From a virus (taxonomy: Duplodnaviria > Caudoviricetes), in the IMG/VR virus record IMGVR_UViG_3300048572_000043, positions 1-64,000 of that record: a DNA stretch of 64,000 nucleotides; one strand, written 5' to 3'. Shown here in pieces: positions 33,506-52,663 of the stretch (positions are counted from its first letter, which is position 1; each line of letters begins with the position of its first letter). The position numbers and the translations under genes are program-made. Under the pieces are notes generated by a model. That model searched no databases and was not told where the DNA came from. It saw only the letters and a list, made by a program, of their open reading frames with translations.

Positions 33506-34321
33506 ATGGCATGCGGAAGTAATTCAAAAGCAAATTTTCCTAGTTATTTAAATAGTATTTTAAAAGATATTAATAATGGCAACGATGACGAACTGAAGAG
33601 TTGCGCTTGTTCATTAAAAATTCCTACCACAAACGCAGGATGCTTTATAAGTGACGGCGGTATAAATGGAGCTTTTCCATTTTGCTTAATAAATGGTACT
33701 CCAGCAGAAACAGGTCCAGATACAGATTATCCAATATCATTTAAACTAACTGATTTAATGAAATGGTACTGGACTGGAGATAAATATAAAATAAAAATTA
33801 ATTGGAGCGGCACAGAAAGAGGAGATTGCGGAAGAAATGGAGCACAAACTCAAACAGCAGATTTTGATTTTCAAGAGAGTGATTTTTTAGCAGAAAAAGA
33901 CAAGAAAAAAAGAGTATGCATTCAAAGTGCGACCAATGGTACTGCTAGTTTTAGTGGCAGTATCGTATATTATTGGCCAAGTACAAACCCATGCTGTGGA
34001 GATCCTCCAGAATGTCCAGATCCATATACTGAAACTTTTACATCATCAGTTGAAGTTGGTATAGATTTTGAAAATACATACATAGAAAACAATGGTACAG
34101 TTTGGCCTAAATTTAATTATGGTGGTGAATTTAGTAATGTAAGATGTGGGGATCCAGAACCAAAAGTTGGAGATGCTATGTCAGCTGGAACAAGAGCTAA
34201 ATTCGAAGGAAAATCTTTAGATCCATTATATTTTTGTTGGACTCCAAGTTGGGGCTCAAATGCTGCTTGGGGTTGGAGTGGAAGTATTAATATAACAGTA
34301 GAAATAACTTATTTAAAATAA
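33506..34321 (+). CDS. Cys-rich polymorphic family protein, copy A (most divergent)
   Basis: FPSYLNSILKDINNGNDDELKSCACSL..P....GC.....GAFPFC shared with six other ORFs. Confidence 0.85.
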   Translation: MACGSNSKANFPSYLNSILKDINNGNDDELKSCACSLKIPTTNAGCFISDGGINGAFPFCLINGTPAETGPDTDYPISFKLTDLMKWYWTGDKYKIKINWSGTERGDCGRNGAQTQTADFDFQESDFLAEKDKKKRVCIQSATNGTASFSGSIVYYWPSTNPCCGDPPECPDPYTETFTSSVEVGIDFENTYIENNGTVWPKFNYGGEFSNVRCGDPEPKVGDAMSAGTRAKFEGKSLDPLYFCWTPSWGSNAAWGWSGSINITVEITYLK

Positions 34322-34323
34322 TT

Positions 34324-35316
34324 TTAAATGTCTTCTTTGTTACCAGAAAAAATAATCTCGCAGTACTCTTTAAGTTCGTTAAGGATGTAATCTTTCATAG
34401 AATCAAAATTAATAAAATCAATATAACTTGGTCCTTTTTCATCATCTGTAATAATTTTATATTTATTAATGCTTTCTAAAATATCGCATTTGTTTATAAT
34501 TAATTTATTTGTGCCAGAAATTTTAATCGCTTGTTTTAAATGATTTAACCTCAACCAATTAACTATTCTTTTTCTACCTGTAGTAGAACCAAATTCTTTT
34601 CCAAGATCTATAATTTTATTAAGATCTTTATCTTGCCATAATAATTCTGGAAATAAAGGGTCTACTCCACTTTTAGTATCATAAATTTTTGCTACTCCAA
34701 TAATATTTCTTATCTTTTTAGGACTAAAACCTAAAGAGCAAGCTGAATAAGGAAGAGTTTCGCTACTTGTAACATATGGATAATCTCCATAATTTAAGTC
34801 CAGCCAAAAACTTTGAGCACCTTCACAGAGTATATTTCCATGAAGCTCACCATCCCAAAGATATTGTTTATCTAGATAATCTTTCGCAAGTTTACCAACT
34901 CTTAAAGCTTTGTCAGCATAGCAAGGAGCAATACCTTGACCAGTTGTACCAAGTTTTGGTTTTAAAAATTTAAGATCATACTGAATATGTCTTTCAGTAA
35001 TGATATGAGCTTTTTGGCTTACCTTAATTAATGATGTATCAAATCCTTCTTTTTTAAGATAATCTATTTCATCAAAAAATTTATCAATGTTGATAACGCA
35101 ATTTGGACCGATGATGCTAAGTTTATTTTGGAAAACTCCACAAGGAATAATATGAGTTTTATACTTTTTATCATTAAGATAAACTGTATGACCTGCATTG
35201 GGGCCACCATTCCAACGACAAACAATATCATAATTTTTGCTAATAGCATTACTTATTTTACCTTTTCCTTCATCTCCCCAAGCTAATCCAAAGATAATAT
35301 CTACTGAATTTATCAT
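34324..35316 (-). CDS. purA: adenylosuccinate synthetase (short form)
   Basis: WGDEGKGK, GGPNAGHT, EGAQ..LD..YGDYPYVTSS, GSTTGRKR, NKCD. Confidence 0.93.
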   Translation of the reverse strand: MINSVDIIFGLAWGDEGKGKISNAISKNYDIVCRWNGGPNAGHTVYLNDKKYKTHIIPCGVFQNKLSIIGPNCVINIDKFFDEIDYLKKEGFDTSLIKVSQKAHIITERHIQYDLKFLKPKLGTTGQGIAPCYADKALRVGKLAKDYLDKQYLWDGELHGNILCEGAQSFWLDLNYGDYPYVTSSETLPYSACSLGFSPKKIRNIIGVAKIYDTKSGVDPLFPELLWQDKDLNKIIDLGKEFGSTTGRKRIVNWLRLNHLKQAIKISGTNKLIINKCDILESINKYKIITDDEKGPSYIDFINFDSMKDYILNELKEYCEIIFSGNKEDI

Positions 35317-35370
35317 TTATAAACTATTGTATATTAAATATAAAATAAAATCAAGTGTAATTTTTAATAT

Positions 35371-36210
35371 ATGCCATGCGCCCTAACAGAACCAAGCAAT
35401 TATCCAGGCTATCTTAAAACTATTCTTAAAGAGATAGAGGTCGGGAATGATGAAGAATTAAAAGCTTGCGCTTGTTCTTTAAAAAGTCCAGTTACAGATG
35501 AAGGTTGTGTAATAGTTGATGAAGATGGCAAGGTTGGGGCTTTCCCATTTTGTTGCAGTTTAGTGACGGATGGAGTTGGTGATAACACCAGTTATCCATT
35601 AAAATTAACGCTAAAACAAGCTATGTTACTGTATTGGCAAACTATAGATTTTACCCATAACATTATCCCAACAGCCAATTATACAGTATATGGTCAACCA
35701 CCAGGAGAGTGTGGGGCAGCGGGGGGTAGCGGAGTTGATCAAACAGATAGTGATAGTATCTTGATTGCAGATGCAGGTTTTAACATTGTTACAAAAGCTA
35801 AACAAAGAGTGTGTCCATGCCATATATATTTGTTATATGCTTTTCCTGATGCTAGTCCACAAATATTAGGATATTTTTTCTTTGGAAGTGAATTAAAAAT
35901 GAAATATAAAAAAGAAGGAGAGATTTATTATTTTTATCCAAAGTTTGAGATGAGCAGAATTGGAGATTATAATTTTGCTTGGTCTATAAATGAATTCTCT
36001 TCTGGAGACTGTCCATGTGTTTGTTGTTCCCCATATTTAACATATACAGATTTTCAAGTAAAAATAAATGGAATTGAAGCATCTGAAGCACCTATTAAAG
36101 TTTCACTTTGTAATTCAAATGGAAGTTGTGCTGTTTGTAATAATTTAAAATCAGATATTTGGGCAACTTTTAGTACTTTAGAATTTAATACTTCACCTAC
36201 TTTATCTTAA
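35371..36210 (+). CDS. Cys-rich polymorphic family protein, copy B
   Basis: MPCALTEP..YPGYLKTILKEIEVGNDEELKACACSL...GAFPFC. Confidence 0.85.
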   Translation: MPCALTEPSNYPGYLKTILKEIEVGNDEELKACACSLKSPVTDEGCVIVDEDGKVGAFPFCCSLVTDGVGDNTSYPLKLTLKQAMLLYWQTIDFTHNIIPTANYTVYGQPPGECGAAGGSGVDQTDSDSILIADAGFNIVTKAKQRVCPCHIYLLYAFPDASPQILGYFFFGSELKMKYKKEGEIYYFYPKFEMSRIGDYNFAWSINEFSSGDCPCVCCSPYLTYTDFQVKINGIEASEAPIKVSLCNSNGSCAVCNNLKSDIWATFSTLEFNTSPTLS

Positions 36211-36671
36211 TGAATCATAATAAAATTATTGAAATTATTTTAAAAAATCAAGGTGTTTTAGTTGGAAGTTACATTAGAGAATGGTTAGGTAATGGCAAAC
36301 CCATGGATAATGGATGGAACGATATTGATATAAAATGTCCAATAGAAAATATAGAAAAGATACAAAAAGAAATTAAACAAATTGATCAATTAATAAATTT
36401 AGATTTTAAAGCTACATATTTTGATTCAAGTAATAGTGGATATTCAAGTAATTATTTTACTTATGACGGAAACTTTAAATTATGCAATAATATATATCCA
36501 AAGTATAATTTTGCTAGCGATCTCTGGTTAGATTTAACTAAAAAGAAAATATGTATATTTTTAAATACTTCGCCTATAGGAAGAAAATTAAATTTAGAAG
36601 ATAAATTTAAAAATAACAATTGGAAATTATTTTATAGATATAGTATCAAGGACCCTTATTTGATTGAGTAA
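36210..36671 (+). CDS. small Pol-beta superfamily nucleotidyltransferase-like protein
   Basis: LVGSYIRE...WNDIDI resembles the hGG.hRD...DhD motif of CCA/poly(A) polymerase head domains; TAATG overlap with copy B. Confidence 0.6.
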   Translation: MNHNKIIEIILKNQGVLVGSYIREWLGNGKPMDNGWNDIDIKCPIENIEKIQKEIKQIDQLINLDFKATYFDSSNSGYSSNYFTYDGNFKLCNNIYPKYNFASDLWLDLTKKKICIFLNTSPIGRKLNLEDKFKNNNWKLFYRYSIKDPYLIE

Positions 36672-36698
36672 TTTTAAAACCCTAGTGTAATTATTGAT

Positions 36699-37490
36699 AT
36701 GCCATGCGCCCTAACAGAACCAGGTAATTATCCAGGCTATCTTAAAACTATTCTTAAAGAGATAGAGGTCGGGAATGATGAAGAATTAAAAGCTTGTGCG
36801 TGTCAATTAAGATCTCCAGTTACAGATGAAGGATGTCTAATAACAGATCAAGCTGGTAAGGTTGGGGCTTTTCCATTCTGTTCTACTTTAGTAACAGATG
36901 GAGTAGGAGATGATACTGCATACCCACTAAAATTAACTCTTAAACAAGCCATGAATTTATATTGGCAAACAACAAATTGGAAATTTTCAGCAAGCGCCCA
37001 ATCTTCTTCTTCTTGTGGTAATAGTTGGAGTATTAATTATACTCAAAACAAAAGAATAACTTCTAGCGAAGTACCTCCAAGTAAAAATCTAGTATGTCAA
37101 AATATTTTTCAATATATAACCGACTATAATGGCTCCGCTTGTGGAGTAGATGGATGTACTCCTTTTACGGGTAATTATCTAATGTCTTCAATATTTGAAA
37201 CATTCAGTAATCAAATTAAATACAAAAAAGAAGGTGATATTTATTATTTTTATCCTTTTTTTTATTTAGGAACCGTAGGAACTTATGGAACATGCGCTGG
37301 TACACAACAAAGTATAGCTACATCTTGCGATGGATTTGGTTGGAGTAGCGGTAGAAGCTATACTGTTAATGTTAAAATTTTAAATGAAACAGTTACTACT
37401 CCATTAAGGATATATGAGAAAATATTTGATCCTACCGAAGATTGCAGTTATAGTGGAAGTAGTAATATTTCTATACTAGAATTTATTTGA
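36699..37490 (+). CDS. Cys-rich polymorphic family protein, copy C
   Basis: first ~98 nt nearly identical to copy B, variable C-terminus. Confidence 0.85.
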   Translation: MPCALTEPGNYPGYLKTILKEIEVGNDEELKACACQLRSPVTDEGCLITDQAGKVGAFPFCSTLVTDGVGDDTAYPLKLTLKQAMNLYWQTTNWKFSASAQSSSSCGNSWSINYTQNKRITSSEVPPSKNLVCQNIFQYITDYNGSACGVDGCTPFTGNYLMSSIFETFSNQIKYKKEGDIYYFYPFFYLGTVGTYGTCAGTQQSIATSCDGFGWSSGRSYTVNVKILNETVTTPLRIYEKIFDPTEDCSYSGSSNISILEFI

Positions 37491-37918
37491 TGAATCATCA
37501 GTTTATAATAGATACTATTATAAAAAATAATGGTATTATATTAGGTGGATATGTAAGAGAATGGATAGGAAATGGAAGCCCATCAAATTATAATTGGCAA
37601 GATATAGATATAAGATGTCCAAAAGATTCAATAGAAAAAATAAAAAAACAAATTCGTTCTTTATATCCTAATTTAATTTTAGATTTTTCACCAAATGAAT
37701 ATAGTGGATACAGGAGTCCTTATTCATGTAATCTTATACAATACGATGGAGAATTTAAAACTGTAAAATATCTTGGAGAACAAGATTATGTGGATTTAGC
37801 TAAAAATAAAATATGTATATATTTAAAAAATATTAGCGTAGGTAGAAAATTAGATTTTGAGCAAAGATTAATTAATGATGGTTGGAAGATAGAGTTCCCT
37901 TATTTGATGAAACCATAG
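37490..37918 (+). CDS. small nucleotidyltransferase-like protein, paralog of 36210..36671
   Basis: ILGGYVRE...WQDIDI; TGATG overlap with copy C. Confidence 0.65.
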   Translation: MNHQFIIDTIIKNNGIILGGYVREWIGNGSPSNYNWQDIDIRCPKDSIEKIKKQIRSLYPNLILDFSPNEYSGYRSPYSCNLIQYDGEFKTVKYLGEQDYVDLAKNKICIYLKNISVGRKLDFEQRLINDGWKIEFPYLMKP

Positions 37919-37931
37919 TGTAATATATATT

Positions 37932-38918
37932 ATGTTTAAATATATACTTGGATTATCAGCTTTTCTACTAGCTTCTTGTGCTGCATTTTTTTCAGTCAAA
38001 GGAATAGCTCTTTTATTCGCAGCTAGTTTTTGGAGCGTTGCAATAATGGCTGGAAGTTTAGAAGTAGCTAAATTAGTTAGCGCAAGCTATCTTTATAGAT
38101 ACTGGTCAGTAATACATGATTTGCTTAAAAAATACATGTTATCTGCTACTATATTACTTATGTGCATAACAAGTCTTGGTATCTTTGGTTTTCTTTCTGA
38201 TGCTTTTCAACGTAATTTCTCTCAATATTCTTTAAACTTAAATAAAATTCAAAGTTTAAAATCTCAACAAAACTTCTATATATCTCAAATAGATTTCAAT
38301 AAAAATAAATTAAAAGATCTTATAGAATTGCAAAAGACATATCAAACATCTTTAGATAATGCTGTTAAACAAGATGTTACTACAACTAAAACCACTGGCG
38401 GAGGATTCTTTAGTTCAGCTAAAACCGAAAAAGTAACAGACATTAAATTAGTAGAAAGCAAGAATAAGATCATTGAAGGATCTCAAAGCAATATTAATAA
38501 TTTATTCTCTCAAATATCCACGGTAACTTCTGATCTTCAAAATCTAGAAAAACAAAGTTTAGAGAATAGCCAAGAAATAATGAAGCTCGAAAGTGATAAT
38601 ACTAAAGGTGAAATTGGCACATTTAAATTTGTAGCAGATGCATTTGGATTAAAAATAGAAACTGCTGTTAGAATATTTATTATATTAATTGTTATTGTTT
38701 TTGATCCACTAGCAGTATGTTTGGTTATAGCCTATAATTCAATGATTAAGAAAATAGAAAATCAAGAAGCGCCAAAACCAGAACAAAAGATTCAAAATAT
38801 TATAGAAAAACCACTAGATACTTTTAAAGCTATATATGAGAACCTACATAAGAATTTTAAACGCGGAACAAAGACTGAACATAATCCAGACTTAGCGGAT
38901 CCAAGTTTGACACAATAA
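37932..38918 (+). CDS. multi-pass membrane protein with long coiled coil
   Basis: three N-terminal and one C-terminal hydrophobic helices (IVFDPLAV). Confidence 0.75.
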   Translation: MFKYILGLSAFLLASCAAFFSVKGIALLFAASFWSVAIMAGSLEVAKLVSASYLYRYWSVIHDLLKKYMLSATILLMCITSLGIFGFLSDAFQRNFSQYSLNLNKIQSLKSQQNFYISQIDFNKNKLKDLIELQKTYQTSLDNAVKQDVTTTKTTGGGFFSSAKTEKVTDIKLVESKNKIIEGSQSNINNLFSQISTVTSDLQNLEKQSLENSQEIMKLESDNTKGEIGTFKFVADAFGLKIETAVRIFIILIVIVFDPLAVCLVIAYNSMIKKIENQEAPKPEQKIQNIIEKPLDTFKAIYENLHKNFKRGTKTEHNPDLADPSLTQ

Positions 38919-38937
38919 GTATTGTGTATATAATATT

Positions 38938-40185
38938 ATGAGCTGCAATTGTTTAGAGCCTGTTATATTTTCATTAAGCGCTACGACATCTCAAGCGAAA
39001 GTTGGCTTTTCATGTTTGAATGGTCAAGGTAGTCAAAAATATCTTAATTTTAGCGCAAATGGCAGTAGTTACAGATCGGGTTATTCAACAAACAATCCAG
39101 GCACATGGACAGATGACTGGACGTACAATACGATAAAACAATCTAGATATATTTATATGGTACAGGAATATGGTATAATTACAGTTTATGAAGATAAGAA
39201 TTTTATATATCAAGGTACATATGATATATATGATGGCGATTCTTTCAACCTCTATACAGATGCTACATTAACTACTAATCCTCCAGGGATCCAATGTGAA
39301 ATTGTTGATGAAGAAGATCCTGTTTTAGTACCAGTTGTAATTGAAGCAGAAGATGTTCTAACTGGACCTACTGAAGCAGGTTTACTTGAGGCTGAATTTT
39401 GTACTTCTCAGATAATAAATTGTCAGTTTGTTGGTCGACCAGCCTCATGTAGCTCTAATAATTGTTACAATATAGACGAATGCTTTGAAGGGAGTTGTGA
39501 TGGACCTGAAATATCATGTCAAGCTGGGACTGCTACCCCGACTTGTGGGGATCCTTGTGATCGATCTATACAATGCACTAGTGGACGAACTAAGTATAAT
39601 AATGATTATGTTTATTATGATTGTAGGTTTTCCGCCTCAAATGGATACGAAGAAACCAAAAACACGCTTAGGAATTTAAGTAATCGAGCCTTAGCAAATG
39701 AAGTGACAGATGATTTTGTATATCAAATATGCAAAGAATCTACTACTAAAAAAATACAAAAATTAAAAACTAACATAATTGGTACTTGTGAACCATTAAC
39801 GAACCCTGATGAGAATTGGAGTTCATTTAGTAACGGTATTGTAGTTTCAGCTAAAGTTGTTAATAATATACCAACAGCTCAACAAGCAATTTTTAGAGTT
39901 TGTGTGCCTAAAGAAAATGTGGATAAAAGCATTGAAGTAAAAGGAAAGTTTTATCTTTATATAGGTGCAACTTGTGCGTCTTGTTGTGTGGATGAAGATA
40001 ACTTTGGTGGAACCATAGTAGCCACAGAGCCTGTAACAATCTTTCCTAATAATAGTCCAATTATGATAAAAGGAGGCATTGAATATTTTTATAAAGATGT
40101 GCAAATCACTTACCATAATGGTACATATTCTCAATACGCTGGACAAACAATAGACGCTTGTTTTACTTTAATTTCTTTGAAATAA
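38938..40185 (+). CDS. Cys-rich hypothetical protein (>20 Cys)
   Basis: 415-aa ORF starting MSCNC, GTGTAT motif upstream. Confidence 0.7.
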   Translation: MSCNCLEPVIFSLSATTSQAKVGFSCLNGQGSQKYLNFSANGSSYRSGYSTNNPGTWTDDWTYNTIKQSRYIYMVQEYGIITVYEDKNFIYQGTYDIYDGDSFNLYTDATLTTNPPGIQCEIVDEEDPVLVPVVIEAEDVLTGPTEAGLLEAEFCTSQIINCQFVGRPASCSSNNCYNIDECFEGSCDGPEISCQAGTATPTCGDPCDRSIQCTSGRTKYNNDYVYYDCRFSASNGYEETKNTLRNLSNRALANEVTDDFVYQICKESTTKKIQKLKTNIIGTCEPLTNPDENWSSFSNGIVVSAKVVNNIPTAQQAIFRVCVPKENVDKSIEVKGKFYLYIGATCASCCVDEDNFGGTIVATEPVTIFPNNSPIMIKGGIEYFYKDVQITYHNGTYSQYAGQTIDACFTLISLK

Positions 40186-40213
40186 TATAATTACCGTTTT
40201 ACGCACAAACATT

Positions 40214-40393
40214 TTAATATTTTTTAATTCTATAATTCTTATTAGAAGGATCTATTTTAAGAATATGAGCTTTAGCTTTTAATAAACCTTCTTTAGATGG
40301 AGGAAATACTCCATGAAGAAAGTTATCACTTTTGCTGTAAACAGCGTAGTATTTAGCTTGTTTCGTCTTTTTTAGTTTGTTCTTCTTTTTCAT
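40214..40393 (-). CDS. small basic hypothetical protein (59 aa, not in the ORF track)
   Basis: MKKKNKLKKTKQAKYYAVYSKSDNFLHGVFPPSKEGLLKAKAHILKIDPSNKNYRIKKY fills the gap downstream of the SEC-C gene. Confidence 0.5.
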   Translation of the reverse strand: MKKKNKLKKTKQAKYYAVYSKSDNFLHGVFPPSKEGLLKAKAHILKIDPSNKNYRIKKY

Positions 40394-40604: not shown

Positions 40605-40641
40605 ATTATATTGTACTGAATTAAGTGTAAATTTCTAATAT

Positions 40642-41349
40642 ATGCCATGCGCTTTAACAGAACCAGGAAATTATCCAGATTATCTTAAACGTATTCTTAA
40701 AACGATAGCTGTTGGAAATGATACCGATTTAAAAACTTGTGCATGCTCTTTAAGATCTCCGCTAACGACTGAGGGTTGCCCAGCAATAGGTGGAGATGGA
40801 AAGATTGGAGCTTTCCCATTTTGCACACAAGAAAGCGCAGACAGTAAATATGCAATATGGCCTTTGGAAAAGGCCATGGAAACCTATTGGCGCGTAAGGG
40901 CTTGGGACTTTAGCGCAGCAGTAACAGTAAAACCTTTTGAAGATGACGAATTTTTGGTTACAACCTCCATAAAAAACATTAGAAGCGCAGCTAATAAAGA
41001 GTCAGACCTAGTGTGTTTTAATGAGTTTGTAGACCCAGAAGAGGCCTATAAATCCGCAGATATATTTTTCGGCCCCCTTTCTTTCGGAAACCAATTTTTA
41101 CAAAAAGTAGATAATTTATATTACTCTGGTTTAGGGGGATATTTTTCTAATGATTTATTCAATCCTTTAGTTGAACTAGAGTTTTCTTTTGGGGCAGATG
41201 TCAATATATATGGAAATGATTTTCCTTTTTCTGTTCTAGGGGCTAATTTAAAAATCAGCGTCAACGCTTATATGGAAGATCAGCCAGATTTTTACAACCC
41301 CGCTATCGGTTGTACGGCAAGTCTTACTCCGAGTTCATATTGGCCTTAA
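40642..41349 (+). CDS. Cys-rich polymorphic family protein, copy D
   Basis: MPCALTEPGNYPDYLK...GAFPFC, ends SSYWP. Confidence 0.85.
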   Translation: MPCALTEPGNYPDYLKRILKTIAVGNDTDLKTCACSLRSPLTTEGCPAIGGDGKIGAFPFCTQESADSKYAIWPLEKAMETYWRVRAWDFSAAVTVKPFEDDEFLVTTSIKNIRSAANKESDLVCFNEFVDPEEAYKSADIFFGPLSFGNQFLQKVDNLYYSGLGGYFSNDLFNPLVELEFSFGADVNIYGNDFPFSVLGANLKISVNAYMEDQPDFYNPAIGCTASLTPSSYWP

Positions 41350-41389
41350 CCACGCATAACACTGAATCTGAAATAAATTAAATAAAATC

Positions 41390-43542: not shown

Positions 43543-43545
43543 CAA

Positions 43546-44133
43546 ATGATTGGATTAACTGGAGTAGCTCGATCTGGAAAAGATACTTTTTATTCTATCT
43601 TAAAAAGATATCTAGAAGAAAAAGGAATCAAATCCCAAAGACTAGCTTTTGCTGATGCATTAAAAAATGAACTATACGAATTTACTAAAGATAAATTTAA
43701 AATAGATTTACTAAATTGCAGTCCAGAAAACAAGGAAATAGTAAGACCACTTATGGTTGCTTATGGAAAATGCAGAAGAATACAAACAGAAGGAAAATAC
43801 TGGACTTCTACTATTCAACCAGAAGTAAACAAATTAATTGCTAAGAACATTGTTCCAATCGTCACGGACGTAAGATATATAGAGTATAAAGATGATGAAT
43901 ATTCTTGGATAAAATCTCATAATGGTATTCTAATACATATTTCAAGAAAACTAGATGATGGTTCTTTGGTCCCTCCAGCAAATATAGAAGAAAAATCTAA
44001 TGATAATAAGCTTAAAGCTGTATCTGATATAAGTATAGCTTGGGAGACTTGCCAAGACGTTAATTTTTTACATGAATTAATGCAAAAACAATTAAAAAAT
44101 GTTTACGAAAAATACTTACAAAATAAAAAATAA
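43546..44133 (+). CDS. deoxynucleoside monophosphate kinase
   Basis: GLTGVARSGKDT, AFADALK, VTDVRY. Confidence 0.85.
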   Translation: MIGLTGVARSGKDTFYSILKRYLEEKGIKSQRLAFADALKNELYEFTKDKFKIDLLNCSPENKEIVRPLMVAYGKCRRIQTEGKYWTSTIQPEVNKLIAKNIVPIVTDVRYIEYKDDEYSWIKSHNGILIHISRKLDDGSLVPPANIEEKSNDNKLKAVSDISIAWETCQDVNFLHELMQKQLKNVYEKYLQNKK

Positions 44134-44134
44134 T

Positions 44135-44728
44135 ATGAACAAACAAATAGACGACATTACTTTAGTCAAGAGTATAAAAGAAAAGAATGATGAAGAAGCA
44201 TTGAAAACTTTAATTCAAAAACATTCTGCTCTTTGCAATTCTTTATATAAAAAATACTCAACTCCAATGGTTGCATCTGGAGTTCATCTTCAAGACGTAA
44301 TAGATCAAAAAGATTATATGGTCTACAAATCGGCATTAAGTTTTGATGAAAATAAAAACTCTAAATTCTCGACTTGGTTATATAATCAAGTAAGATATCA
44401 ATGCCTTAACTGTATGAATGAAAATAGTCATTATTTAACCCTTGAAACTGATAAACTAAACTATTTAATAGAAAAGAATACTCCAGTTCAAAAAGAGTAT
44501 AAAAATATTAATGAATATATTATGAATATTATTGATTCTTGCTCAGATGAAAGAATACAAAAGATATTCAAAATGAGATATTTAAATGATTCTAATAAAA
44601 AAATGCCTTGGAATAAAATAGCTAAAAAATTAAAGATAAGCACTCAAACTGCTATCAATATACATAATAAAGCCATTAAACTATTAAAAACTAAAGTTGA
44701 GAGTAAAAATTGTTTTGACAAAATATAA
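44135..44728 (+). CDS. phage-encoded sigma70-family RNA polymerase sigma factor
   Basis: FD..KNSKFSTWLY..VR region 2 and C-terminal HTH (WNKIAKKLKIS). Confidence 0.85.
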   Translation: MNKQIDDITLVKSIKEKNDEEALKTLIQKHSALCNSLYKKYSTPMVASGVHLQDVIDQKDYMVYKSALSFDENKNSKFSTWLYNQVRYQCLNCMNENSHYLTLETDKLNYLIEKNTPVQKEYKNINEYIMNIIDSCSDERIQKIFKMRYLNDSNKKMPWNKIAKKLKISTQTAINIHNKAIKLLKTKVESKNCFDKI

Positions 44729-46143: not shown

Positions 46144-46490
46144 TGCCACTATATACATACATTAATCCTAAAACAAAACAAACAATAGATATTGTACAAT
46201 CAGTACATGACGAACATATTTATATAGATAAAAATGGATTACAATGGAGTAGAGTATTTACTGCTCCAGAAGTTAATACTCATGGAACATTAAAAGCAGA
46301 AACCTCAGAAAAGCAATTTTCGGAATTTACAAAAAATCGTAAAGGCACACTTGGAGATCTTTGGGACCAAAGCGCAGAGCTTTCAGAGAAAAGAAAAAAA
46401 GTTTATAGTGGACAAGACCCAGTAAAAAAGAAATATAAGAGTGATTGGAGCAAAAAAAGAAAAGGTCGCGTACACCCTAAAGACGACTAA
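46143..46490 (+). CDS. FmdB-like small protein
   Basis: MPLYTY...RVFTAP N-terminus lacking the zinc-binding Cys. Confidence 0.45.
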   Translation: MPLYTYINPKTKQTIDIVQSVHDEHIYIDKNGLQWSRVFTAPEVNTHGTLKAETSEKQFSEFTKNRKGTLGDLWDQSAELSEKRKKVYSGQDPVKKKYKSDWSKKRKGRVHPKDD

Positions 46491-46572
46491 AAGCAAATTG
46501 TTTATAACTTATTAAAATTTTCTTTCTTTAATTTAAAAAAAGATGTAATATAGTTTTTGTACTAGTTACATT

Positions 46573-48834
46573 ATGAATAAGAACACAAACGTTAAAAAAA
46601 GAAATGGCTCTACTGAAAAGTTTAATATAGAAAAAATAAACAAAGTAATCAACTGGGCAATTGATGGTTATAGCGGGGTTAGTTTAACAGATATTGAAAT
46701 TAATGCTAAAATTAATATTCACGATGGAATCAACACGAAGGAGATTCATAACCTATTAATTGAAAGTGCAGCAAATTTGATTTCAATTGAAAAACCAAAC
46801 TATCAATACGTTGCAGCTAGATTATTAAATTATCAACTCAGAAAAGATGTTTGGAAAGGTAAACATGCCCCTAGACTATCAGAGTTTTTAAATCAAAATA
46901 TTAAAAATAAAGTTTATGACTCAAGTATTTTAAATGACTATTCGGAGGATGAGATAAATAAGATTGGAGAATTCATTGACCATGATAGAGACTTTATTTT
47001 TACTTACGCTGGAATCAAACAGCTTTGCGATAAATATTTAATTAAGAATAGAACTACTGGAGAAATTCATGAAACTCCACAATTTGCTTATATATTAATT
47101 GCAGCTTATGCTTTTGCAAAATACCCAGTAGAGACAAGACTTTCATATGTTAGAAAATTTTACGATGCTATTAGTAAACACAAGATCAATCTCCCAACAC
47201 CAGTAATGGCAGGAGTTAGAACATCTAGTAGAAATTATGCTAGTTGTTGTTTAATTGGAGTAGATGATACAAAAGATAGTATTACAGCTAGTGCTACTGC
47301 GGTAAGCATGGCTACTGCTAATAGATGTGGAATTGGAATTGATATAAGTAAAATTAGAGCTATTGGATCTTCTATTAAGAATGGAGAAGTTGTACATACT
47401 GGTTTAATTCCATTTTTAAAAATATATGAAAGTAGCGTAAAAGCATGGCAACAGAATGGATTGAGAGGTGGTAGCGCGACTTGCAATATTCAATGGTGGC
47501 ATTATGAAATCGAAGATATCGTTGTATTAAAAAATAACGCAGGAACAGATGATAATAGAGTTCGTAAACTTGACTATACAGTTGGCATGAGTAAACTATT
47601 CTATGATAGAGTATTAAAAGATGAAGATATCACTCTATTTAACAACGCAGAGGTTCCTGAGCTTTACGAAGCATGGGGAACAAAAGATTTTGATAAAGTA
47701 TATAAAGAATGTGAATCTAAAAAATTAAAATTAAAAAAGAAAATGTCTGCTCGTAAACTATTTTCCCTTATTATCAAAGAGAGAGTTGAAACTGGTAGGA
47801 TTTATATTTTAAATGTAGATCATGCAAATAATCATGGAGCATGGTTAGATAAAGTTACAATGAGCAATCTTTGTACAGAAGTTATTCATCCTACGATTCC
47901 ATTAAATGATTATCACGATAAAGAAGGCGAAATTGGGATGTGTATTCTTTCAGCAGTAAACATGCTAGAAATAAAAAACTGGCAGGATCTTGAAAAGACT
48001 TGCGATCTTATCGTAAGATTTTTAGACGAAATCATTGAGCTTCAAGATTATTTTAATATTGCTGCTGAAAATTTTGCTAAAAAACGTAGAAGCCTTGGAG
48101 TTGGAATTACCAATCTTGCAGCTTTTCTTGCTAAAAATGAATTGAAATATAGTTCCGATAAGTCATTGTCAGTTGTCGATGAATGGATGGAGCATTTTCA
48201 ATATTATTTATTAAAGAGTAGCGTCGAATTAGCTAAAGAAAAGGGCAAATGCGATAAGTTTCATAGAACCAAATATTCAAAAGGTATACTTCCTATTGAT
48301 ACTTACAAAGATAAAGTAGATGAACTAGTCAAAAGAAAATTATCACTTGATTGGGATAAATTAAGAAAAGATATTAAAGAATTTGGTTTGAGACATTCAA
48401 CCTTATCTTCTTGTATGCCTTGTGAGAGCAGTTCTGTAATTCAATGCTCAACAAACGGAGTAGAACCTATTCGTAGTCTTATAACATATAAAACTAGCAA
48501 AATGGGCAAACTTCCAGTTATGGTTCCAGGAATTGGAAAGTATGACGAGAATTATGAATTAGCATATGATTTAAAAGATAACTCTGGAGTACTTAAAATT
48601 AATGCAGTAATCCAAAAATATATTGACATGGCTATATCAACTAATGTATACTACAACTATAGTCATTATGAAAACAATATTCTTCCAGATGCTAAAGTTA
48701 TGAAAGAGCTTATTTACGCTTATAGCCTTGGATTGATTAGTTTGTATTACAATAACACAGATGACGGAGATAAAGAACAATCGCTCAATCAAAAAGAAAA
48801 TGGAGATTGTTCTAGTGGAGCGTGTAAACTATAG
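46573..48834 (+). CDS. nrdA: class Ia ribonucleotide reductase alpha subunit with ATP cone
   Basis: VKKRNG cone, PTPVMAG, ASCCL, SNLCTE, C-terminal CSSGACKL. Confidence 0.97.
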   Translation: MNKNTNVKKRNGSTEKFNIEKINKVINWAIDGYSGVSLTDIEINAKINIHDGINTKEIHNLLIESAANLISIEKPNYQYVAARLLNYQLRKDVWKGKHAPRLSEFLNQNIKNKVYDSSILNDYSEDEINKIGEFIDHDRDFIFTYAGIKQLCDKYLIKNRTTGEIHETPQFAYILIAAYAFAKYPVETRLSYVRKFYDAISKHKINLPTPVMAGVRTSSRNYASCCLIGVDDTKDSITASATAVSMATANRCGIGIDISKIRAIGSSIKNGEVVHTGLIPFLKIYESSVKAWQQNGLRGGSATCNIQWWHYEIEDIVVLKNNAGTDDNRVRKLDYTVGMSKLFYDRVLKDEDITLFNNAEVPELYEAWGTKDFDKVYKECESKKLKLKKKMSARKLFSLIIKERVETGRIYILNVDHANNHGAWLDKVTMSNLCTEVIHPTIPLNDYHDKEGEIGMCILSAVNMLEIKNWQDLEKTCDLIVRFLDEIIELQDYFNIAAENFAKKRRSLGVGITNLAAFLAKNELKYSSDKSLSVVDEWMEHFQYYLLKSSVELAKEKGKCDKFHRTKYSKGILPIDTYKDKVDELVKRKLSLDWDKLRKDIKEFGLRHSTLSSCMPCESSSVIQCSTNGVEPIRSLITYKTSKMGKLPVMVPGIGKYDENYELAYDLKDNSGVLKINAVIQKYIDMAISTNVYYNYSHYENNILPDAKVMKELIYAYSLGLISLYYNNTDDGDKEQSLNQKENGDCSSGACKL

Positions 48835-48837
48835 TCC

Positions 48838-49902
48838 ATGAAAACAGTATTAAATTTTAAAAACATAGATACCACAAAGCAGCCTCTTTTCCTCGGAGAA
48901 GATCTTAATCTTCAAAGATATGATCGATTTAAATATCCAATATTTTTTGAATTATTTAAAAAGCAAAATGAAAATTTTTGGTGGCCTCACGAAATAGCAC
49001 TAGGAAAAGACAGAAGTGATTATAAAAATTTAACTGATACAGAAAGATTTGTATTTGATAGTAATTTGAGATTTCAAACACTTGGAGATAGCATGCTGTC
49101 TAGAAGCATACATTCCCTCAAAGACTACGTCAGTAATCCAGAACTAGAAATATGTATGAATACTTGGGCGCAATTTGAAGGTATTCATAGTTATTCTTAC
49201 TCTTATCTCTTAAATAATGTATATCCAGATCCAACCAAATTCTTTGATAGTATTATGGAAGATAAAGAAATAACAAGTCGCGCTCAATTGATTAGAGATA
49301 ATTTTGATAAAATTCTTGGTGATGATGAAAAGAAAGATCCTAAACAAAAGATTTTTGATGCTATTCTTTCTATTAACGTAATGGAAGGGCTTGTATTTTA
49401 TGTTTCATTCGCTTGTTCTTTTTACTTTGGATATAGAGGAAAGATGGAAGGCAACTCTAAGATTATTAAATTCATTCAAAGAGATGAAGCTCTGCATTTT
49501 GCGGTTAGTCAAAACTTACTTAAAATATTAAGAGACGAAGATAAAGAGGGCTTTACAAGTATAGTAAAGAAAAGCGAAGATAAGATTTATGCTTTTTATG
49601 AACAAGCTGCTAAAAATGAAAGCGAGTGGTCCAAATATCTATTTAGTAAAGGTAGTTTGCTTGGTTTAAATGCGGAAGTGTTAGATGGTTATTCTAAATG
49701 GTTATGCGATTCTAGATTAAGAAGCCTTGGCTATAAGAAGATATTTAATCAAAAGGACAATCCTATCGGTGGATGGCATGATAGCTATTTAGATAGTAGC
49801 AAAGTACAAGTTGCACCTCAAGAAACAGAAATTTCAAGTTACAAAGTTGGAGCAAGAAAAACAGATATATCAGATGATGATTTTGGTGATTTGAAACTAT
49901 AA
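48838..49902 (+). CDS. nrdB: ribonucleotide reductase beta subunit
   Basis: FWWPHE, EGIHSYSY, EGLVFY.SF, RDEALH, APQETEISSY. Confidence 0.97.
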   Translation: MKTVLNFKNIDTTKQPLFLGEDLNLQRYDRFKYPIFFELFKKQNENFWWPHEIALGKDRSDYKNLTDTERFVFDSNLRFQTLGDSMLSRSIHSLKDYVSNPELEICMNTWAQFEGIHSYSYSYLLNNVYPDPTKFFDSIMEDKEITSRAQLIRDNFDKILGDDEKKDPKQKIFDAILSINVMEGLVFYVSFACSFYFGYRGKMEGNSKIIKFIQRDEALHFAVSQNLLKILRDEDKEGFTSIVKKSEDKIYAFYEQAAKNESEWSKYLFSKGSLLGLNAEVLDGYSKWLCDSRLRSLGYKKIFNQKDNPIGGWHDSYLDSSKVQVAPQETEISSYKVGARKTDISDDDFGDLKL

Positions 49903-49925
49903 TTTTGGCGTATTTAATTCTTATA

Positions 49926-50675
49926 TTAAGACCAATACTCGCTAGCAGTAAAATTTATACTAAAATTACCGCTCGGCGTAGGCTCTGGGTCTAATGGATT
50001 ACAACCAATCGGCCCAGAAAAAGTAGCTCCAAATAAACTTAAAGACCAAGAACCAACACTAAAAGAAGGGGGATCGCTGAAGGATCCTCCACCTAAAGCC
50101 AAAGTAGTACCATCATCAGATAAAATCCATTTTCCTAGCATTCTATAGCTTGATTCGCTCAACTTAGAAAACACGGGGTAAAATTGTAGATCCATTAAAT
50201 AATCGGCTCGTAAATTTGGGTTGGTAAAATTTAATATCCCACTTTTGTAATGTTGACGCTCTCCATACGGACTACACACTAATTTTTCCTGGTTAGTAAC
50301 GTAAGTAACATCACCATCATGGTCGTAGTATTTAGTTTCTAGTTCTCCTCCCCCAAAAAGAATTGTTGGTTCCCCATTAATAATACCATTACCAGAGGCG
50401 GTTACCTTAAATTTTTTAACTCTCCAATATAGGTTCATAATATCCTCAAGTGAGCCTTGAAATATTTTCAAATAAGGTGACGGCGGCTGAGTACAACTTG
50501 GAAAAGCGCCAATCTTTCCATTACCATCGATTATTGGACACCCTTCATCATTAACTGGAGATCTTAAAGAACATGCACAAGCTTTTAAAGTAGTATCGTT
50601 CCTAACAGCTATGTTTTTAAGAATAGATTTAATATAATCTGGATAATCTGCTCCTGATATTATTGCACATGGCAT
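49926..50675 (-). CDS. Cys-rich polymorphic family protein, copy E
   Basis: MPCAIISGADYPDYIKSILK...GAFPSC, ends SEYWS. Confidence 0.85.
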   Translation of the reverse strand: MPCAIISGADYPDYIKSILKNIAVRNDTTLKACACSLRSPVNDEGCPIIDGNGKIGAFPSCTQPPSPYLKIFQGSLEDIMNLYWRVKKFKVTASGNGIINGEPTILFGGGELETKYYDHDGDVTYVTNQEKLVCSPYGERQHYKSGILNFTNPNLRADYLMDLQFYPVFSKLSESSYRMLGKWILSDDGTTLALGGGSFSDPPSFSVGSWSLSLFGATFSGPIGCNPLDPEPTPSGNFSINFTASEYWS

Positions 50676-50742
50676 ATATTATATATACACTATTTAATAG
50701 TGTAAACTATTAGTGAGCAATTTAAGTGAATCACTAGCAATA
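50641..50742. repeat. ~102-bp direct repeat, copy 1 (family gene start + divergent GTGTAW pair + start of 71-aa gene)
   Basis: matches 51735..51836 with one mismatch. Confidence 0.9.
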
Positions 50743-50928
50743 TGTTCTGAGTTTGCAGATGAATACGGCATAGACTCTAAAGATAATAATAAAATTATAG
50801 TATACATGAAAAGCGAATATATTAATGAATTAAAGAATATGCTTGAAAATAAAAATTATAAATTAAAATCTTTTCAAGTATATGGTGATGAAGCAATAGT
50901 ATATTTTATTCCTAAAAAAAGAAAATAA
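50713..50928 (+). CDS. hypothetical protein
   Basis: 71-aa ORF, GTG start 7 nt after GTGTAA. Confidence 0.65.
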   Translation: MSNLSESLAICSEFADEYGIDSKDNNKIIVYMKSEYINELKNMLENKNYKLKSFQVYGDEAIVYFIPKKRK

Positions 50929-50929
50929 G

Positions 50930-51001
50930 AGCCAGAAATTGGATTCGAACCGATGACCTTCTCGTTACAAGTGAGATGCACTACCACTGTGCTATTCTGG
51001 C
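50930..51001 (-). tRNA. tRNA-Thr(UGU)
   Basis: cloverleaf GCCAGAA/TTCTGGC, anticodon loop CTTGTAA, GGTTCGAATCC; one mismatch each in the anticodon and T stems; no encoded CCA. Confidence 0.88.
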
Positions 51002-51769
51002 TTACTTTAATCCATTTCTTGTTATAGTACAATTTGATATCTGATTATCACCACCAATCATATCTACACTAAGTGAAACAAATCTAAATTTACCTACTAC
51101 TATCCCTGGAGGGCCAACGAAAGTACGTGGAACACCGCCCGCAATACCATCTAAATAATATAATATTATATAAAAATTCCCTTGATAAAAATAAACAGGA
51201 TATTCTGAATCAATATATAAACCAACTTCTGGTGTCCATGGGTCAATTACTGGGACATCACAATTGTCATTATTAGCATCTTGTCCTTCAAACGTATAAA
51301 TTACTTCATAGTAAGCTGGACTATCACAGGTCTGTTTTAAAAAATTTTCTATACTAACATTATCTCTGGAACTAGGACCCCTAGCAGTAAGTGAATGCGT
51401 TACTATTCTAACATCTTCGATTGGGGCACCACAATTTATTGGACCAAAACTCCAGAATCCAGATGCGTTTATACTATAATTATACGGTGCCCACCATAAT
51501 TCCATAAGCTGTTTAAGAGTAAATCTAGTATATGCAGGATAGCCATTACTTATAAGTAATAGTGGATCACTATCTGTGTTAATAACACAAAATGGGAAAG
51601 CTCCAATTTTGCCATCTTCATCTAAAATTGTACATCCATCATTATCAACTGGCGACTTCAAAGAACAAACGCAAGTTTTTGCATAGGTATCGTTTCCAGC
51701 ATTTATTCTTTTGATAGCATTCTTAAGATAATTTGGATAATCTGCTCCTGATGTTATTGCACATGGCAT
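51002..51769 (-). CDS. Cys-rich polymorphic family protein, copy F
   Basis: MPCAITSGADYPNYLK...CVCSLKSP..GC...GAFPFC. Confidence 0.85.
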   Translation of the reverse strand: MPCAITSGADYPNYLKNAIKRINAGNDTYAKTCVCSLKSPVDNDGCTILDEDGKIGAFPFCVINTDSDPLLLISNGYPAYTRFTLKQLMELWWAPYNYSINASGFWSFGPINCGAPIEDVRIVTHSLTARGPSSRDNVSIENFLKQTCDSPAYYEVIYTFEGQDANNDNCDVPVIDPWTPEVGLYIDSEYPVYFYQGNFYIILYYLDGIAGGVPRTFVGPPGIVVGKFRFVSLSVDMIGGDNQISNCTITRNGLK

Positions 51770-51836
51770 ATATTATATATACACTATTTAATAGTGTAAA
51801 CTATTAGTGAGCAATTTAAGTGAATCACTAGCAATA
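51735..51836. repeat. ~102-bp direct repeat, copy 2
   Basis: matches 50641..50742. Confidence 0.9.
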
Positions 51837-51866
51837 GTATATTTTATTCCTAAAAAAAGAAAATAA
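51807..51866 (+). pseudogene. internally deleted copy of the 71-aa gene (MSNLSESLAIVYFIPKKRK)
   Basis: 5' and 3' ends of 50713..50928 joined in frame at AGCAATA microhomology. Confidence 0.85.
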
Positions 51867-51892
51867 AATTTTATGTTTTTAAAAATTGCTAC

Positions 51893-52663
51893 TTAAGGCC
51901 AGTATTCTTTTGCCCTAACACTCATAGATACACTGCCCTTAATCTTATTACCCCCAAAAGTACAAGAGACATATATTGGAAAACTTCCTTTATAACCTTC
52001 AAATGAAAGATCGCACTGTCCAGCGTAATCATCATTAATATTCGAAGTGGATAAATAAGCACTTCCCATATCAATAACCACATAAATATTACTATTTGAA
52101 CCAATTACTGCTCCTATCTCTGAATTAAAGTAATAAGTTAAATAAGTATTTTCAGCAGTTTGTGGTGCTTGATCACCATATTTAACCGTTTGATTTGCAA
52201 CAAATCCACGGAAGTCCGATGTCTCAAAAGGACAAACTAGTTTTTCCTGCGTAAAATTTGGCGGAAAATAAGGATCATAAAGATTACGAAATTCTGTATA
52301 ACCAGTACTTATGTAAGTATTAGTCGAATCATCAAAATTAGGACCTCCATTACAAGTTATACTTCCACTTAATGTAACTTCCCATGTTTTTACTTTCCAA
52401 AATAAAGTCATAGCTTGTTTAAGAGTAAGCTCTAAATATTGTAAACCTTCCCCTGGGGTTGGCGTTCCTATTGGTAAGCAAAATGGAAAAGCTCCAACCT
52501 TACCATCTTGATCTGTTATTAGACATCCTTCATCTGTAAGTGGGGATTTAAGATCAGAGCAAGCACAAGCTTTTAAATCATCATCATTTCCAACAGCTAT
52601 CTTTTTAAGAATAGATTTAAGGTAATCTGGATAATTATCTGGTTCTGTTAAAGCGCATGGCAT
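51893..52663 (-). CDS. Cys-rich polymorphic family protein, copy G
   Basis: MPCALTEPDNYPDYLK...GAFPFC, ends KEYWP. Confidence 0.85.
   Translation of the reverse strand: MPCALTEPDNYPDYLKSILKKIAVGNDDDLKACACSDLKSPLTDEGCLITDQDGKVGAFPFCLPIGTPTPGEGLQYLELTLKQAMTLFWKVKTWEVTLSGSITCNGGPNFDDSTNTYISTGYTEFRNLYDPYFPPNFTQEKLVCPFETSDFRGFVANQTVKYGDQAPQTAENTYLTYYFNSEIGAVIGSNSNIYVVIDMGSAYLSTSNINDDYAGQCDLSFEGYKGSFPIYVSCTFGGNKIKGSVSMSVRAKEYWP

Follow-up and report, generated by a model that had tools for sequence, protein, structure and literature searches.

What a phage does with seven related, scattered genes for small cysteine-rich proteins, and how such genes have come to differ over most of their length, is the question raised by the first 64 kb of the IMG/VR record IMGVR_UViG_3300048572_000043. 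This whole stretch of 64,000 nucleotides (nt), hereafter called the window, is the beginning of a viral record of 101,856 bp (G000:C1). The seven genes very probably form a lineage-specific multigene family of a low-GC freshwater myophage of about 160 kb, in which the unit consists of a promoter-like GTGTAW element, an open reading frame (ORF) of about 250 codons and a scant 3' tail. The encoded proteins combine an N-terminal module of about 92 amino acids (aa) with a mostly beta body that carries a cysteine in an LVC context and that, in some subtypes, ends in YW.

The seven genes and their shared N-terminal module

A first-pass annotation of the window, made from the letters alone, had listed seven ORFs of 235–279 aa with a common N-terminus, and all of them are present at the coordinates and on the strands that it gave. 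A profile built from the seven matches the 101,856-bp record at these places and nowhere else, with E values from 3e-76 to 5e-103. Each gene is preceded by a GTGTAW hexamer, 8–11 nt before its ATG:

Copy A, 33506..34321 (+): 271 aa, 12 Cys; profile E 1e-86; GTGTAA at 33492..33497 (+), 8 nt before the ATG, forming a palindrome with the opposite motif of a divergent 109-aa gene; lies between this 109-aa membrane/coiled-coil gene and purA, convergent with purA.
Copy B, 35371..36210 (+): 279 aa, 16 Cys; profile E 5e-103; motif 35355-35360 (+); first gene of a two-gene unit with a 153-aa companion.
Copy C, 36699..37490 (+): 263 aa, 12 Cys; profile E 2e-100; motif 36685-36690 (+); tandem second unit, with a 143-aa companion.
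Copy D, 40642..41349 (+): 235 aa, 7 Cys, YWP end; profile E 3e-76; motif 40625-40630 (+); convergent with a GMP-reductase-like gene.
Copy E, 49926..50675 (-): 249 aa, 7 Cys, YWS end; profile E 2e-85; motif 50685-50690 (-); convergent with nrdB.
Copy F, 51002..51769 (-): 255 aa, 9 Cys; profile E 6e-88; motif 51779-51784 (-); stop codon abuts tRNA-Thr.
Copy G, 51893..52663 (-): 256 aa, 9 Cys, YWP end; profile E 2.5e-96; motif 52673-52678 (-); the copy chosen for structure modelling.

The convergence with purA, the GMP-reductase-like gene and nrdB that had been described holds for A, D and E, respectively.

Alignment of the seven proteins gives 24 invariant columns, all within the first 89 residues (M1, C3, P12, Y14, K20, I22, N26, D27, K31, C33, C35, L37, P40, G45, C46, G52, G55, A56, F57, P58, C60, L81, M85 and W89). 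The conserved N-terminal module reported at first is real, but its length has to be revised from about 60 to about 92 residues, since invariant columns run to W89. Past the cysteine of the GAFPFC string there is a short variable linker, followed by a conserved helix (L.LKQAM.LYW) that ends near residue 92. The N-terminal 62 residues are 52–87% identical between copies, and selection on the module is purifying: in the comparison of nonsynonymous and synonymous divergence (dN/dS) that had been proposed, residues 28–92 of D gave 0.09/0.51 and residues 1–92 of B gave 0.17/0.76, i.e. ratios of about 0.18–0.23, as compared to 0.54 for the body of B (window against the related record G001).

The remainder of the proteins had been called barely alignable, which proved right: from residue 95 to the end, pairwise identity is 16–25%, the level reached by shuffled sequence (19.1 ± 2.4%). 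Body alignments exceeded a z of 3.5 in five of 21 pairs (B-C 6.4, E-G 4.3, D-G 3.8, A-G 3.8, A-F 3.7). When profiles of ten body clusters were compared with one another (45 pairs), the BC-type profile against cluster 04 reached 96.5% probability and no other pair came as high; BC-D (69%), D-E (59%) and G-E (58%) matched over short stretches, and the rest stayed below 30%. The shared strings GCLITDQ, LTLKQAM and QEKLVC, as well as the terminal YW[PS] of D, E and G, are visible in the translations as had been noted. In an alignment of 105 family members the cysteine in the LVC context is nearly invariant, and the conserved anchors of the consensus are C, LVC and KEGxxYxFYP. The cysteine content of the copies is 3.0–5.7%, against a genome mean of 1.79%, and all copies are net acidic, with D+E exceeding K+R by 7–14 per protein.

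Four of the cysteines cluster in the module (C3, a CxC at 33/35, and C46/47), and their behaviour in a divergent subfamily is informative. This P0103-type subfamily (12 clusters, about 200 aa, with a D-type body) has the first ~55 residues replaced by MGKVLHASxSGYF..C and a WWSYGGTYNTSTGxxL tail added; it lacks C3, C33, C35 and C47 together, while the GAFPFC-position and LVC cysteines are kept. Because four are lost jointly and two retained, we infer that the N-terminal four belong together, as a metal site or as two disulfides, and that the other two may form a pair. A locus search with P0103 found no viral contig.

In public sequence collections the family is present and without a name. A profile search of 5.8 billion proteins retrieved 114, three of which are the window's own, and all are unnamed or 'hypothetical' and without a Pfam domain. 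The search with a hidden Markov model of the N-terminal part that had been suggested, carried out with HMMER against 1.84 billion cluster representatives, gave 90 matches with E<=1e-3, of which 82 had E<=1e-10; two of the 90 (P0162 and P0167) are repeat artefacts, leaving 88 credible clusters to which the module is restricted. Among these the module begins within the first 17 residues of proteins of 58–392 aa, so that it is never internal or C-terminal and never fused to a large fibre-like protein. Pfam returned no family at E<=1e-3 for any of the 105 aligned members, the seven copies giving sub-threshold rows only; PHROGs gave no match and NCBIfam none for A, B and G, the three of seven scanned, and the best E against PDB sequences was 0.42. 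Together with the empty fold searches described below, this agrees with the first impression that no named family matches. No description of the Cys-rich family or of the phage lineage was found in the literature, supplementary files being outside the scope of that search. The family is thus real, undescribed and restricted to this lineage.

The lineage itself is very probably that of a low-GC freshwater myophage of roughly 160 kb. The record has a GC content of about 30% and an estimated completeness of 64% (CheckV), and encodes a DnaE-type polymerase, DnaB, a RecA-like protein, GDP-mannose dehydratase, many glycosyltransferases, a weak sigma-70-type factor (44099-44728), a dNMP-kinase-like protein and a BspA-type leucine-rich repeat (LRR) protein. 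It is assigned to the myophages because the related record G007 continues into a structural module with a tail sheath (phrog_15433, 8e-114) that shares 37–39% identity with its counterparts in phiKZ-like Pseudomonas jumbo phages. The 50,697 deposited phage genomes include no close relative, and tblastn of copy G against these records gave no match. The region was found in 24 listed entries for sequencing runs from 21 studies; all ten entries with at least 0.23 of the sampled words were labelled freshwater metagenome, three of which may be the source sample, and no RNA data set was among the entries listed. A metagenome scan gave ten loci, mostly in records already among the relatives compared.

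Structure prediction, also proposed earlier, was run on copy G with AlphaFold2 from 105 sequences and gave a mean predicted local distance difference test score (pLDDT) of 81.2 and a predicted template-modelling score (pTM) of 0.80. The model has helices at 13-24, 28-36 and 81-90, short bridges at the cysteine cluster and about eight long strands over residues 91-254; its pLDDT is 90–97 over residues 1–60 and 58–92 in the body. Foldseek found no match for it at E<=1e-3 in PDB or BFVD. VIA-align against 48,161 chains gave no Z>=5, the top rows being eight- to ten-stranded up-and-down barrels with Z up to 4.2, and a second look with this program gave a best Z of 3.3. Folded alone, the N-terminal module reached a pLDDT of 62.5 from 16 sequences, a shallow alignment that may lower the confidence, and a best Z of 2.8. 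The ESM Atlas offered no usable feature match for G or B, its own models being poor (pTM 0.30 and 0.18), and a homotrimer prediction with three copies of G scored 0.00, which counts neither way. The modelled body can be read as a meander barrel or curved sheet, a fold which these searches did not place and which we do not claim to be new.

Cassette turnover, body replacement and the GTGTAW motif

How the copies have diversified can be approached by comparison with eight related viral records, all partial (12–64% complete), which hold 1–4 copies each; G005 also holds a frameshifted N-terminal remnant. The core proteins of G001, G004, G005 and G007 are 85–99% identical to those of the window, while the family proteins reach at best 59% (B) and 44% (D). 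Core genes of the window and G001 have diverged with dN of 0.008–0.11 and dS of 0.29–0.96, and B and its positional orthologue, which account for the 59%, with dN 0.34 and dS 0.80. D and the G001 copy at 14421 are 83% identical over residues 28–92 and 24% identical in the body, where dN (0.81) and dS (0.97) denote effectively unrelated sequence. At the DNA level (blastn), nt ~80–270 of this ORF are near-identical, about 400 nt of the body cannot be aligned, and homology returns at 88% 30 nt before the stop codon to run on for 8.6 kb.

A case of exchange is offered by G004 and G005, which are 94–97.5% identical in DNA over blocks of 2.6–20 kb. One G004 copy matches the stranded frameshifted remnant of G005 at 96.9% over its first 320 nt, and the intact copy next to that remnant at 90.9% over its last 137 nt, the 3' end; between these ends the two records cannot be aligned, and the bodies are 35% identical. 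Body replacement between conserved ends has left its footprint here. The other G004 copy lies downstream of dnaB in an insertion of ~670 bp that is absent from G005 and from the window. It starts inside a GTGTAA motif, the edge falling between ...AAAAGTCAAGT and GTAAT...ATG, and stops ~10–25 nt after the stop codon. At the same dnaB junction G007 has a different allele, of 257 instead of 219 aa.

Similar edges are seen when the window is compared with G001. E stands where G001 has the purA/109-aa pair and no family gene; F and G are inserted together at a single point (G001 3440/3442), beside tRNA-Thr; A separates purA from the 109-aa gene, which has been relocated, and G001 homology ends at 33491, one base before the motif of A; and C with its companion is an extra tandem unit. 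Conversely, a copy next to the tmRNA gene of G001 is absent from the window. On their 5' side, the A, E and G insertions begin 0–15 nt upstream of their GTGTAW. The description of the genes as self-contained promoter-plus-ORF cassettes is borne out by these edges in close relatives, near GTGTAW at one side and ~10–25 nt past the stop codon at the other.

Two transfer RNA genes of the record are found in the same area, tRNA-Thr(TGT) at 50929-51001 (-), which abuts the stop codon of F, and tRNA-Ser with anticodon ACT at 53199-53285 (+), which adjoins a 96-aa gene; both stand at edges of family insertions. The tmRNA gene, at 32121-32509 (-), is full length (Rfam RF00023, 103.9 bits, model positions 1-374 of 374); its tag peptide is AKTAKYKGHISARASLVELTASVA according to ARAGORN, and the gene is 88–89% identical at the nt level in G001, G004 and G005.

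The DNA shared by paralogues is found at their 5' ends. Long repeats between copies are confined to this region and absent from the variable bodies. The longest exact tract, of 83 nt, is common to E (50660..50741, minus strand) and F (upstream copy at 51754-51835); it extends from -66 to +16 relative to the ATG and contains two hairpins and the GTGTAT motif, with a fold z of -2.8 in the F context and -1.1 in the E context. B and C share an exact tract of 71 nt at ORF nt 28–98, while elsewhere in the module the E/F and B/C coding sequences are only 75–86% identical. In relatives, copies stand at junctions of reordered core blocks, in orders such as dnaB, copy, copy, companion; 96-aa gene, copy, GMP-reductase gene; and glycosyltransferase, intervening genes, copy, 109-aa gene, nrdB. 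We attribute this position to the portable homology that the copies offer in both orientations.

Other diversifiers were considered. A diversity-generating retroelement (DGR) is rejected, as there is no match to reverse transcriptase (PF00078) in the record, at its estimated 64% completeness, and no long repeats between copies in the variable bodies. Invertible segments of the Gin/Cin/Min type are rejected as well, since no serine invertase (PF00239) matches in the record and a complete 5' module with a start codon is present in every copy. A recent arrival of the copies from a foreign source is likewise rejected: their GC content at third codon positions is 0.15–0.28, close to that of core genes (0.15–0.21).

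Thus, the cassette edges, body swaps, shared tracts and block junctions support recombination through the conserved 5' DNA, as the first-pass annotation had proposed in place of a DGR; they add the conserved 3' end as a second arm in some subtypes and the promoter motif as the mark of the cassette edge. The comparisons show whole units that were gained, lost, tandem-duplicated and moved between intergenic sites, bodies that were replaced, and paralogues that exchanged short 5' tracts. The accompanying claim, that copies are not fixed and diverge in a mosaic fashion, stands in part. Copy number and sites do vary among relatives, but A, B, C and G have metagenome orthologues with roughly uniform divergence along the gene:

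A and P0015: body 84%, module 79% identical (P0015, P0016 and P0021 together: body 80–84%, N-terminal module 72–91%).
B and P0002: body 93%, module 90%.
C and P0004: body 88%, module 91%.
G and P0017: body 70%, module 75%.

The similar identity of module and body in these pairs shows that the paralogues are old, stable lineages that have been reassorted rather than hypermutated. Clustering of the bodies of 97 of 121 sequences (7 from the window, 90 from databases; 21 sequences lacking a recognisable boundary and three duplicates of window copies were left out) gave 21 single-linkage clusters, in which E and F are singletons; the E and F bodies have no BLAST relative (E<=1e-3) among the 114 proteins.

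The GTGTAW motif, which had been described for each copy, is indeed present at all seven, but it is not private to the family. At 19 of its 48 sites in the record it lies 8–12 nt before an ATG that opens at least 59 codons, and these 19 comprise the seven family genes and 12 others, whereas permuted control hexamers are found in such positions in 172 of 9712 cases (1.8%). The enrichment recurs in three relatives (9/47, 10/30 and 8/37, against 1.3–1.5% for controls) and is about 20-fold in four of four records. The other genes led by the motif are the 328-aa membrane/coiled-coil gene, a 415-aa Cys-rich gene, a 455-aa gene, the BspA-LRR gene, nrdB (perhaps by chance) and seven more between 70 and 101 kb, one of them ferredoxin-like; examples of positions are 37918, 38924, 54602 (-) and 32046 (-) in the window. 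The 109-aa gene, which starts with GTG, has a further site 8 nt upstream that falls outside this ATG-only tally. Leading genes in the G007 structural region (811, 779 and 643 aa) have the motif as well.

GTGTAW is a genome-wide expression signal and probably a phage promoter. Motif-led genes have no Shine-Dalgarno sequence, while other genes have AAGGAG. The motif as an analogue of the Shine-Dalgarno sequence is rejected, since in one gene of the G007 structural region the motif, ~25 nt upstream, precedes an AGGAG, and AAGGAG is used by other genes. If GTG+TAWWWW acts as a -10-like element, its spacing to the ATG would put the transcription start at or next to the AUG, which would give leaderless mRNAs. 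Over 33–53 kb neither sigma-70-like sites (97 found, 108.7 expected) nor terminator-like sites (9 found, 7.4 expected) are enriched, and a hairpin that involves the motif is present upstream of A, E and F only.

Possible roles of the proteins

With respect to function we lean, tentatively, towards surface-exposed virion accessories, adhesins or decoration proteins, on a common anchor. The common N-terminal module would dock the proteins to one virion site, the variable bodies would recognise differing ligands, of the host or the environment, and the repertoire would thereby set or broaden adsorption specificity. This reading rests on the residue composition, the cysteine content, the absence of export signals, the promoter class shared with structural genes and a turnover that resembles that of receptor-binding proteins. 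The fraction of G, S, T, N, Y, A and P in the copies is 0.48 and that of K, E, I and L is 0.23, outside the values of 34 replication and sugar enzymes (maximum 0.43) and similar to what the G007 structural region shows (0.46 on average, 0.58 in the tail sheath). A high cysteine content is also found in other variable proteins led by the motif and in a repeat protein of the structural region, and the motif leads variable Cys-rich or LRR proteins too. By eye, none of the seven sequences (start MPCALTEP...) has a signal peptide or transmembrane segment.

Several observations weigh against a place on the virion surface. No copy lies in the structural module: the sole copy of G007 is at 21.0–21.8 kb beside dnaB, 14–68 kb from the tail sheath and the large structural genes (38–89 kb), and the window copies are among nucleotide-metabolism genes. 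No fibre, decoration or receptor-binding protein was found to be similar in sequence or fold (no Foldseek match at E<=1e-3 in PDB or BFVD; best VIA Z 4.2, to generic eight-stranded barrels). The class of genes led by GTGTAW is not a purely structural late class, since an auxiliary, ferredoxin-like gene and nrdB, the latter perhaps by chance, belong to it. Anti-defence genes just as typically turn over fast at accessory sites, Cys-rich proteins made in a reducing cytoplasm might be metal binders rather than disulfide-bonded, and the uniformly diverged orthologues of A, B, C and G mean that some differences are not cassette swaps.

The most serious alternative, which we regard as somewhat unlikely, is that the proteins are intracellular effectors in host interaction (anti-defence or takeover), the body of which binds or mimics a host target and the module of which is a Zn-binding regulatory or targeting domain, in an arms race with host defences. 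Like morons, the genes are dispersed among replication and nucleotide-metabolism genes and have their own promoters, and their extreme presence/absence and allele replacement between near-identical phages would fit such a role, as would the net acidic charge. The joint loss of four N-terminal cysteines in the P0103-type subfamily may indicate one metal site, and the record also has an anti-restriction-like protein (phrog_7245). However, in composition the copies resemble the structural proteins of the phage and not its cytoplasmic ones, and 7–16 cysteines per protein, distributed through the bodies, are unusual for cytoplasmic inhibitors. Furthermore, the genes lie outside the 64–95 kb block of small same-strand genes that is the apparent early region, their promoter motif is common to leading genes of structural operons, and the fold searches of PDB and BFVD, in which alone PADLOC-type or known anti-defence folds were covered, gave no match.

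A more elaborate version of the virion-surface reading can be envisaged, which as a whole is distinctly unlikely. It holds that the family is a repertoire of hypervariable eight-stranded barrel binders, each encoded by a minimal cassette of promoter and ORF, diversified by recombination without a DGR, on one dock stabilised by cysteines or metal, that the proteins compete for one virion site, and that they are made from leaderless transcripts. Alternative binders at one site would then give particles of mixed specificity, and the 5' module would serve as an anchor at the protein level and as portable homology at the DNA level, letting cassettes move, swap bodies and invert whole blocks of core genes.

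It is very unlikely that the copies are packaged internal proteins that are ejected with the DNA, with the module as a capsid or scaffold targeting signal and the bodies acting early in the next cell. The formal layout, a conserved N-terminus on otherwise diverse proteins, would be the same. The structural module of the lineage is distantly phiKZ-like, as judged from the sheath, and phages of the phiKZ-like group package numerous paralogous proteins of the inner body or for ejection. Close to their N-termini, B, C, D and G carry a string, ALTE, that resembles the LxE consensus of protease sites, but A, E and F lack it, and a prohead protease was not identified. Moreover, the module of about 92 aa is not a short peptide and is predicted to be structured, as indicated by the high pLDDT of this part in the full-length model, and the copies are acidic, whereas lysine–DNA contacts are stressed for T4 internal proteins (PMC3012670).

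Finally, eight-stranded ligand-binding or membrane barrels of the lipocalin/calycin or OmpA/Ail/Lom type, which would target the host envelope or capture a metabolite and have no role in the virion, are highly improbable: the best body rows are designed transmembrane barrels, OmpT, PagL, OprF, OmpA, NspA and OmpW (Z 3.3–4.2), calycin-like or cyclase barrels follow at Z 2.6–2.9, and several copies end in aromatic residues (YWP, YWS, EFI), but all Z values are below 5 and of a size that is common by chance, no signal peptide is seen by eye, the proteins are acidic and rich in cysteine, and the body pLDDT is only 58–92.

Neighbouring genes, known systems and significance

The genes around the copies encode adenylosuccinate synthetase (PF00709, 1e-81), a protein with an IMPDH/GMP-reductase domain (PF00478, 5e-62), the small chain of ribonucleotide reductase (PF00268, 7e-57) and its large chain, and dCMP deaminase. 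Two further neighbours are paralogous companions of B and C:

36210..36671 (+): 153-aa companion gene, directly downstream of B.
37487..37918 (+): 143-aa companion paralogue, directly downstream of C, 43% identical to the 153-aa protein.

A companion homologue is found directly 3' of a B/C-type copy in G001, G002, G004 and G005, at differing genomic sites. The companion proteins have no match in Pfam, NCBIfam, PHROGs or PDB. They carry invariant G..Y.REW...G and DIDI strings, and their GG/GS...DIDI arrangement is one that we take to resemble a nucleotidyltransferase motif, a likeness that no search supported.

The lineage has more variable or Cys-rich genes. A second pair of Cys-rich paralogues lies at G000:C1 95144-95932 (+) and 95954-96694 (+) (locus L047, 9145-10692), with 33 and 20 cysteines (12.3% and 8.1%), a common YCCLNCT N-terminus, a ...GCHFFAP C-terminus, a GTGTAA motif before both genes and no match in Pfam or PHROGs; a homologue in G006 (41%) sits between the 328-aa and 83-aa genes, in the place of the window's 415-aa gene. 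The 415-aa Cys-rich protein (22 Cys; 38938-40185, plus strand) and the 455-aa protein (30665-32032, minus strand) are both led by GTGTAT, and have no homologue (E<=1e-8) in G001, G004, G005 or G007 and no family match; a 395-aa protein of G007 (35042-36229) is similar in style to the former. The GTGTAA-led BspA-type LRR protein (53296-54585, minus strand; PF13306, 5e-18) has a C-terminal half that matches phrog_17104, and is 42–49% identical in G001 and G004 over partial alignments of 102–151 residues. In the structural region of G007, a 775-aa protein (59712-62039, minus strand; loci L034/L035) consists almost entirely of CTGG(D/N)YSFGG-type repeats and has 26 cysteines. Probably a beta-helical fibre or spike, this protein is a candidate for the partner to which the family docks or for another surface protein beside it.

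Elsewhere in the window, a run of glycosyltransferase and sugar-nucleotide enzyme genes (15111-30628, minus strand) includes GDP-mannose 4,6-dehydratase (16133-17314) and a HAD/nucleotidyltransferase fusion (19100-20476). This run is far more divergent between relatives (34–90% at the aa level) than the flanking replication genes, and several of its genes are unmatched in G004 and G005. Beyond the window, the record encodes the anti-restriction-like protein (G000:C1 89032-89868; phrog_7245, 1e-57), a PhoH-like protein (98411-99136; phrog_170, 6e-62) and a member of a PHROG family labelled ferredoxin (97421-98065).

It is useful to compare the family with systems that it resembles. In phages with multiple receptor-binding proteins, such as CBA120-like phages and Klebsiella phages with several depolymerases, paralogous tailspikes or fibres share an N-terminal anchor. 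The likeness lies in several paralogues per phage with a common N-terminal dock and different C-terminal binding parts, whereas those proteins are large, trimeric and encoded in the structural module, and the ones described here are of about 250 aa and encoded outside it.

According to PMC3157838, gp38, the tail-fibre adhesin of T2/T6-type phages, is a protein of ~250 aa, encoded by one of the most variable phage genes, with an N-terminal attachment domain and a C-terminal specificity domain, in which hypervariable segments are separated by conserved glycine-rich motifs and modules are exchanged between conserved elements. A small protein of ~250 aa with a conserved N-terminal part and an exchangeable remainder is what our family has in common with this account. 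It differs in that the consensus of the 105 members has no glycine-rich motif, that the proteins are rich in cysteine and that there are seven dispersed copies rather than one gene beside a fibre gene, the virion location being putative here. No gp38 was found at E<=1 in the profile search of PDB or among the fold-search rows, an absence that leaves the fold possible.

T4 internal proteins, as described in PMC3012670, are otherwise unrelated proteins that share a conserved N-terminal capsid targeting sequence and are highly diverse between related phages. The conserved N-terminus on diverse proteins is similar; the structured module of ~92 aa, the acidic beta-rich bodies, the dispersed copies and the lack of a conserved cleavage motif (ALTE in 4/7) are different.

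The hyperplastic regions of T4-type phages contain PeSL cassettes, in which (PMC2839356, PMC4122927) short repeated promoter-containing elements bound insertions and deletions and recombination shuffles non-essential genes. Here too, the cassette edges at four insertions (the dnaB site of G004/G007, A, E and G) coincide with GTGTAW, and E and F share the 83-nt element with promoter and hairpins. However, in our family a short GTGTAW at 8–12 nt from the ATG takes the place of a sigma-70 early promoter plus terminator, site types of which neither is enriched; hairpins are present upstream of 3/7 copies, and the homology used also spans ~280 nt of coding sequence. On the basis of these comparisons, the family would seem to belong to none of the gp38, T4 internal protein and PeSL systems.

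Whatever the function of the proteins, the analysis adds an unannotated family, the model of which is unmatched to solved or predicted viral structures in these searches, and it provides a clear case from nature in which paralogues serve as substrates of recombination and change the order of core genes, as well as a candidate class of phage promoters predicted to yield leaderless mRNAs. If the proteins are displayed on the virion, they would represent a new and compact route to host-range plasticity, with many small interchangeable binders on one anchor, and may offer a handle for predicting or engineering adsorption in an abundant lineage of uncultured freshwater phages.

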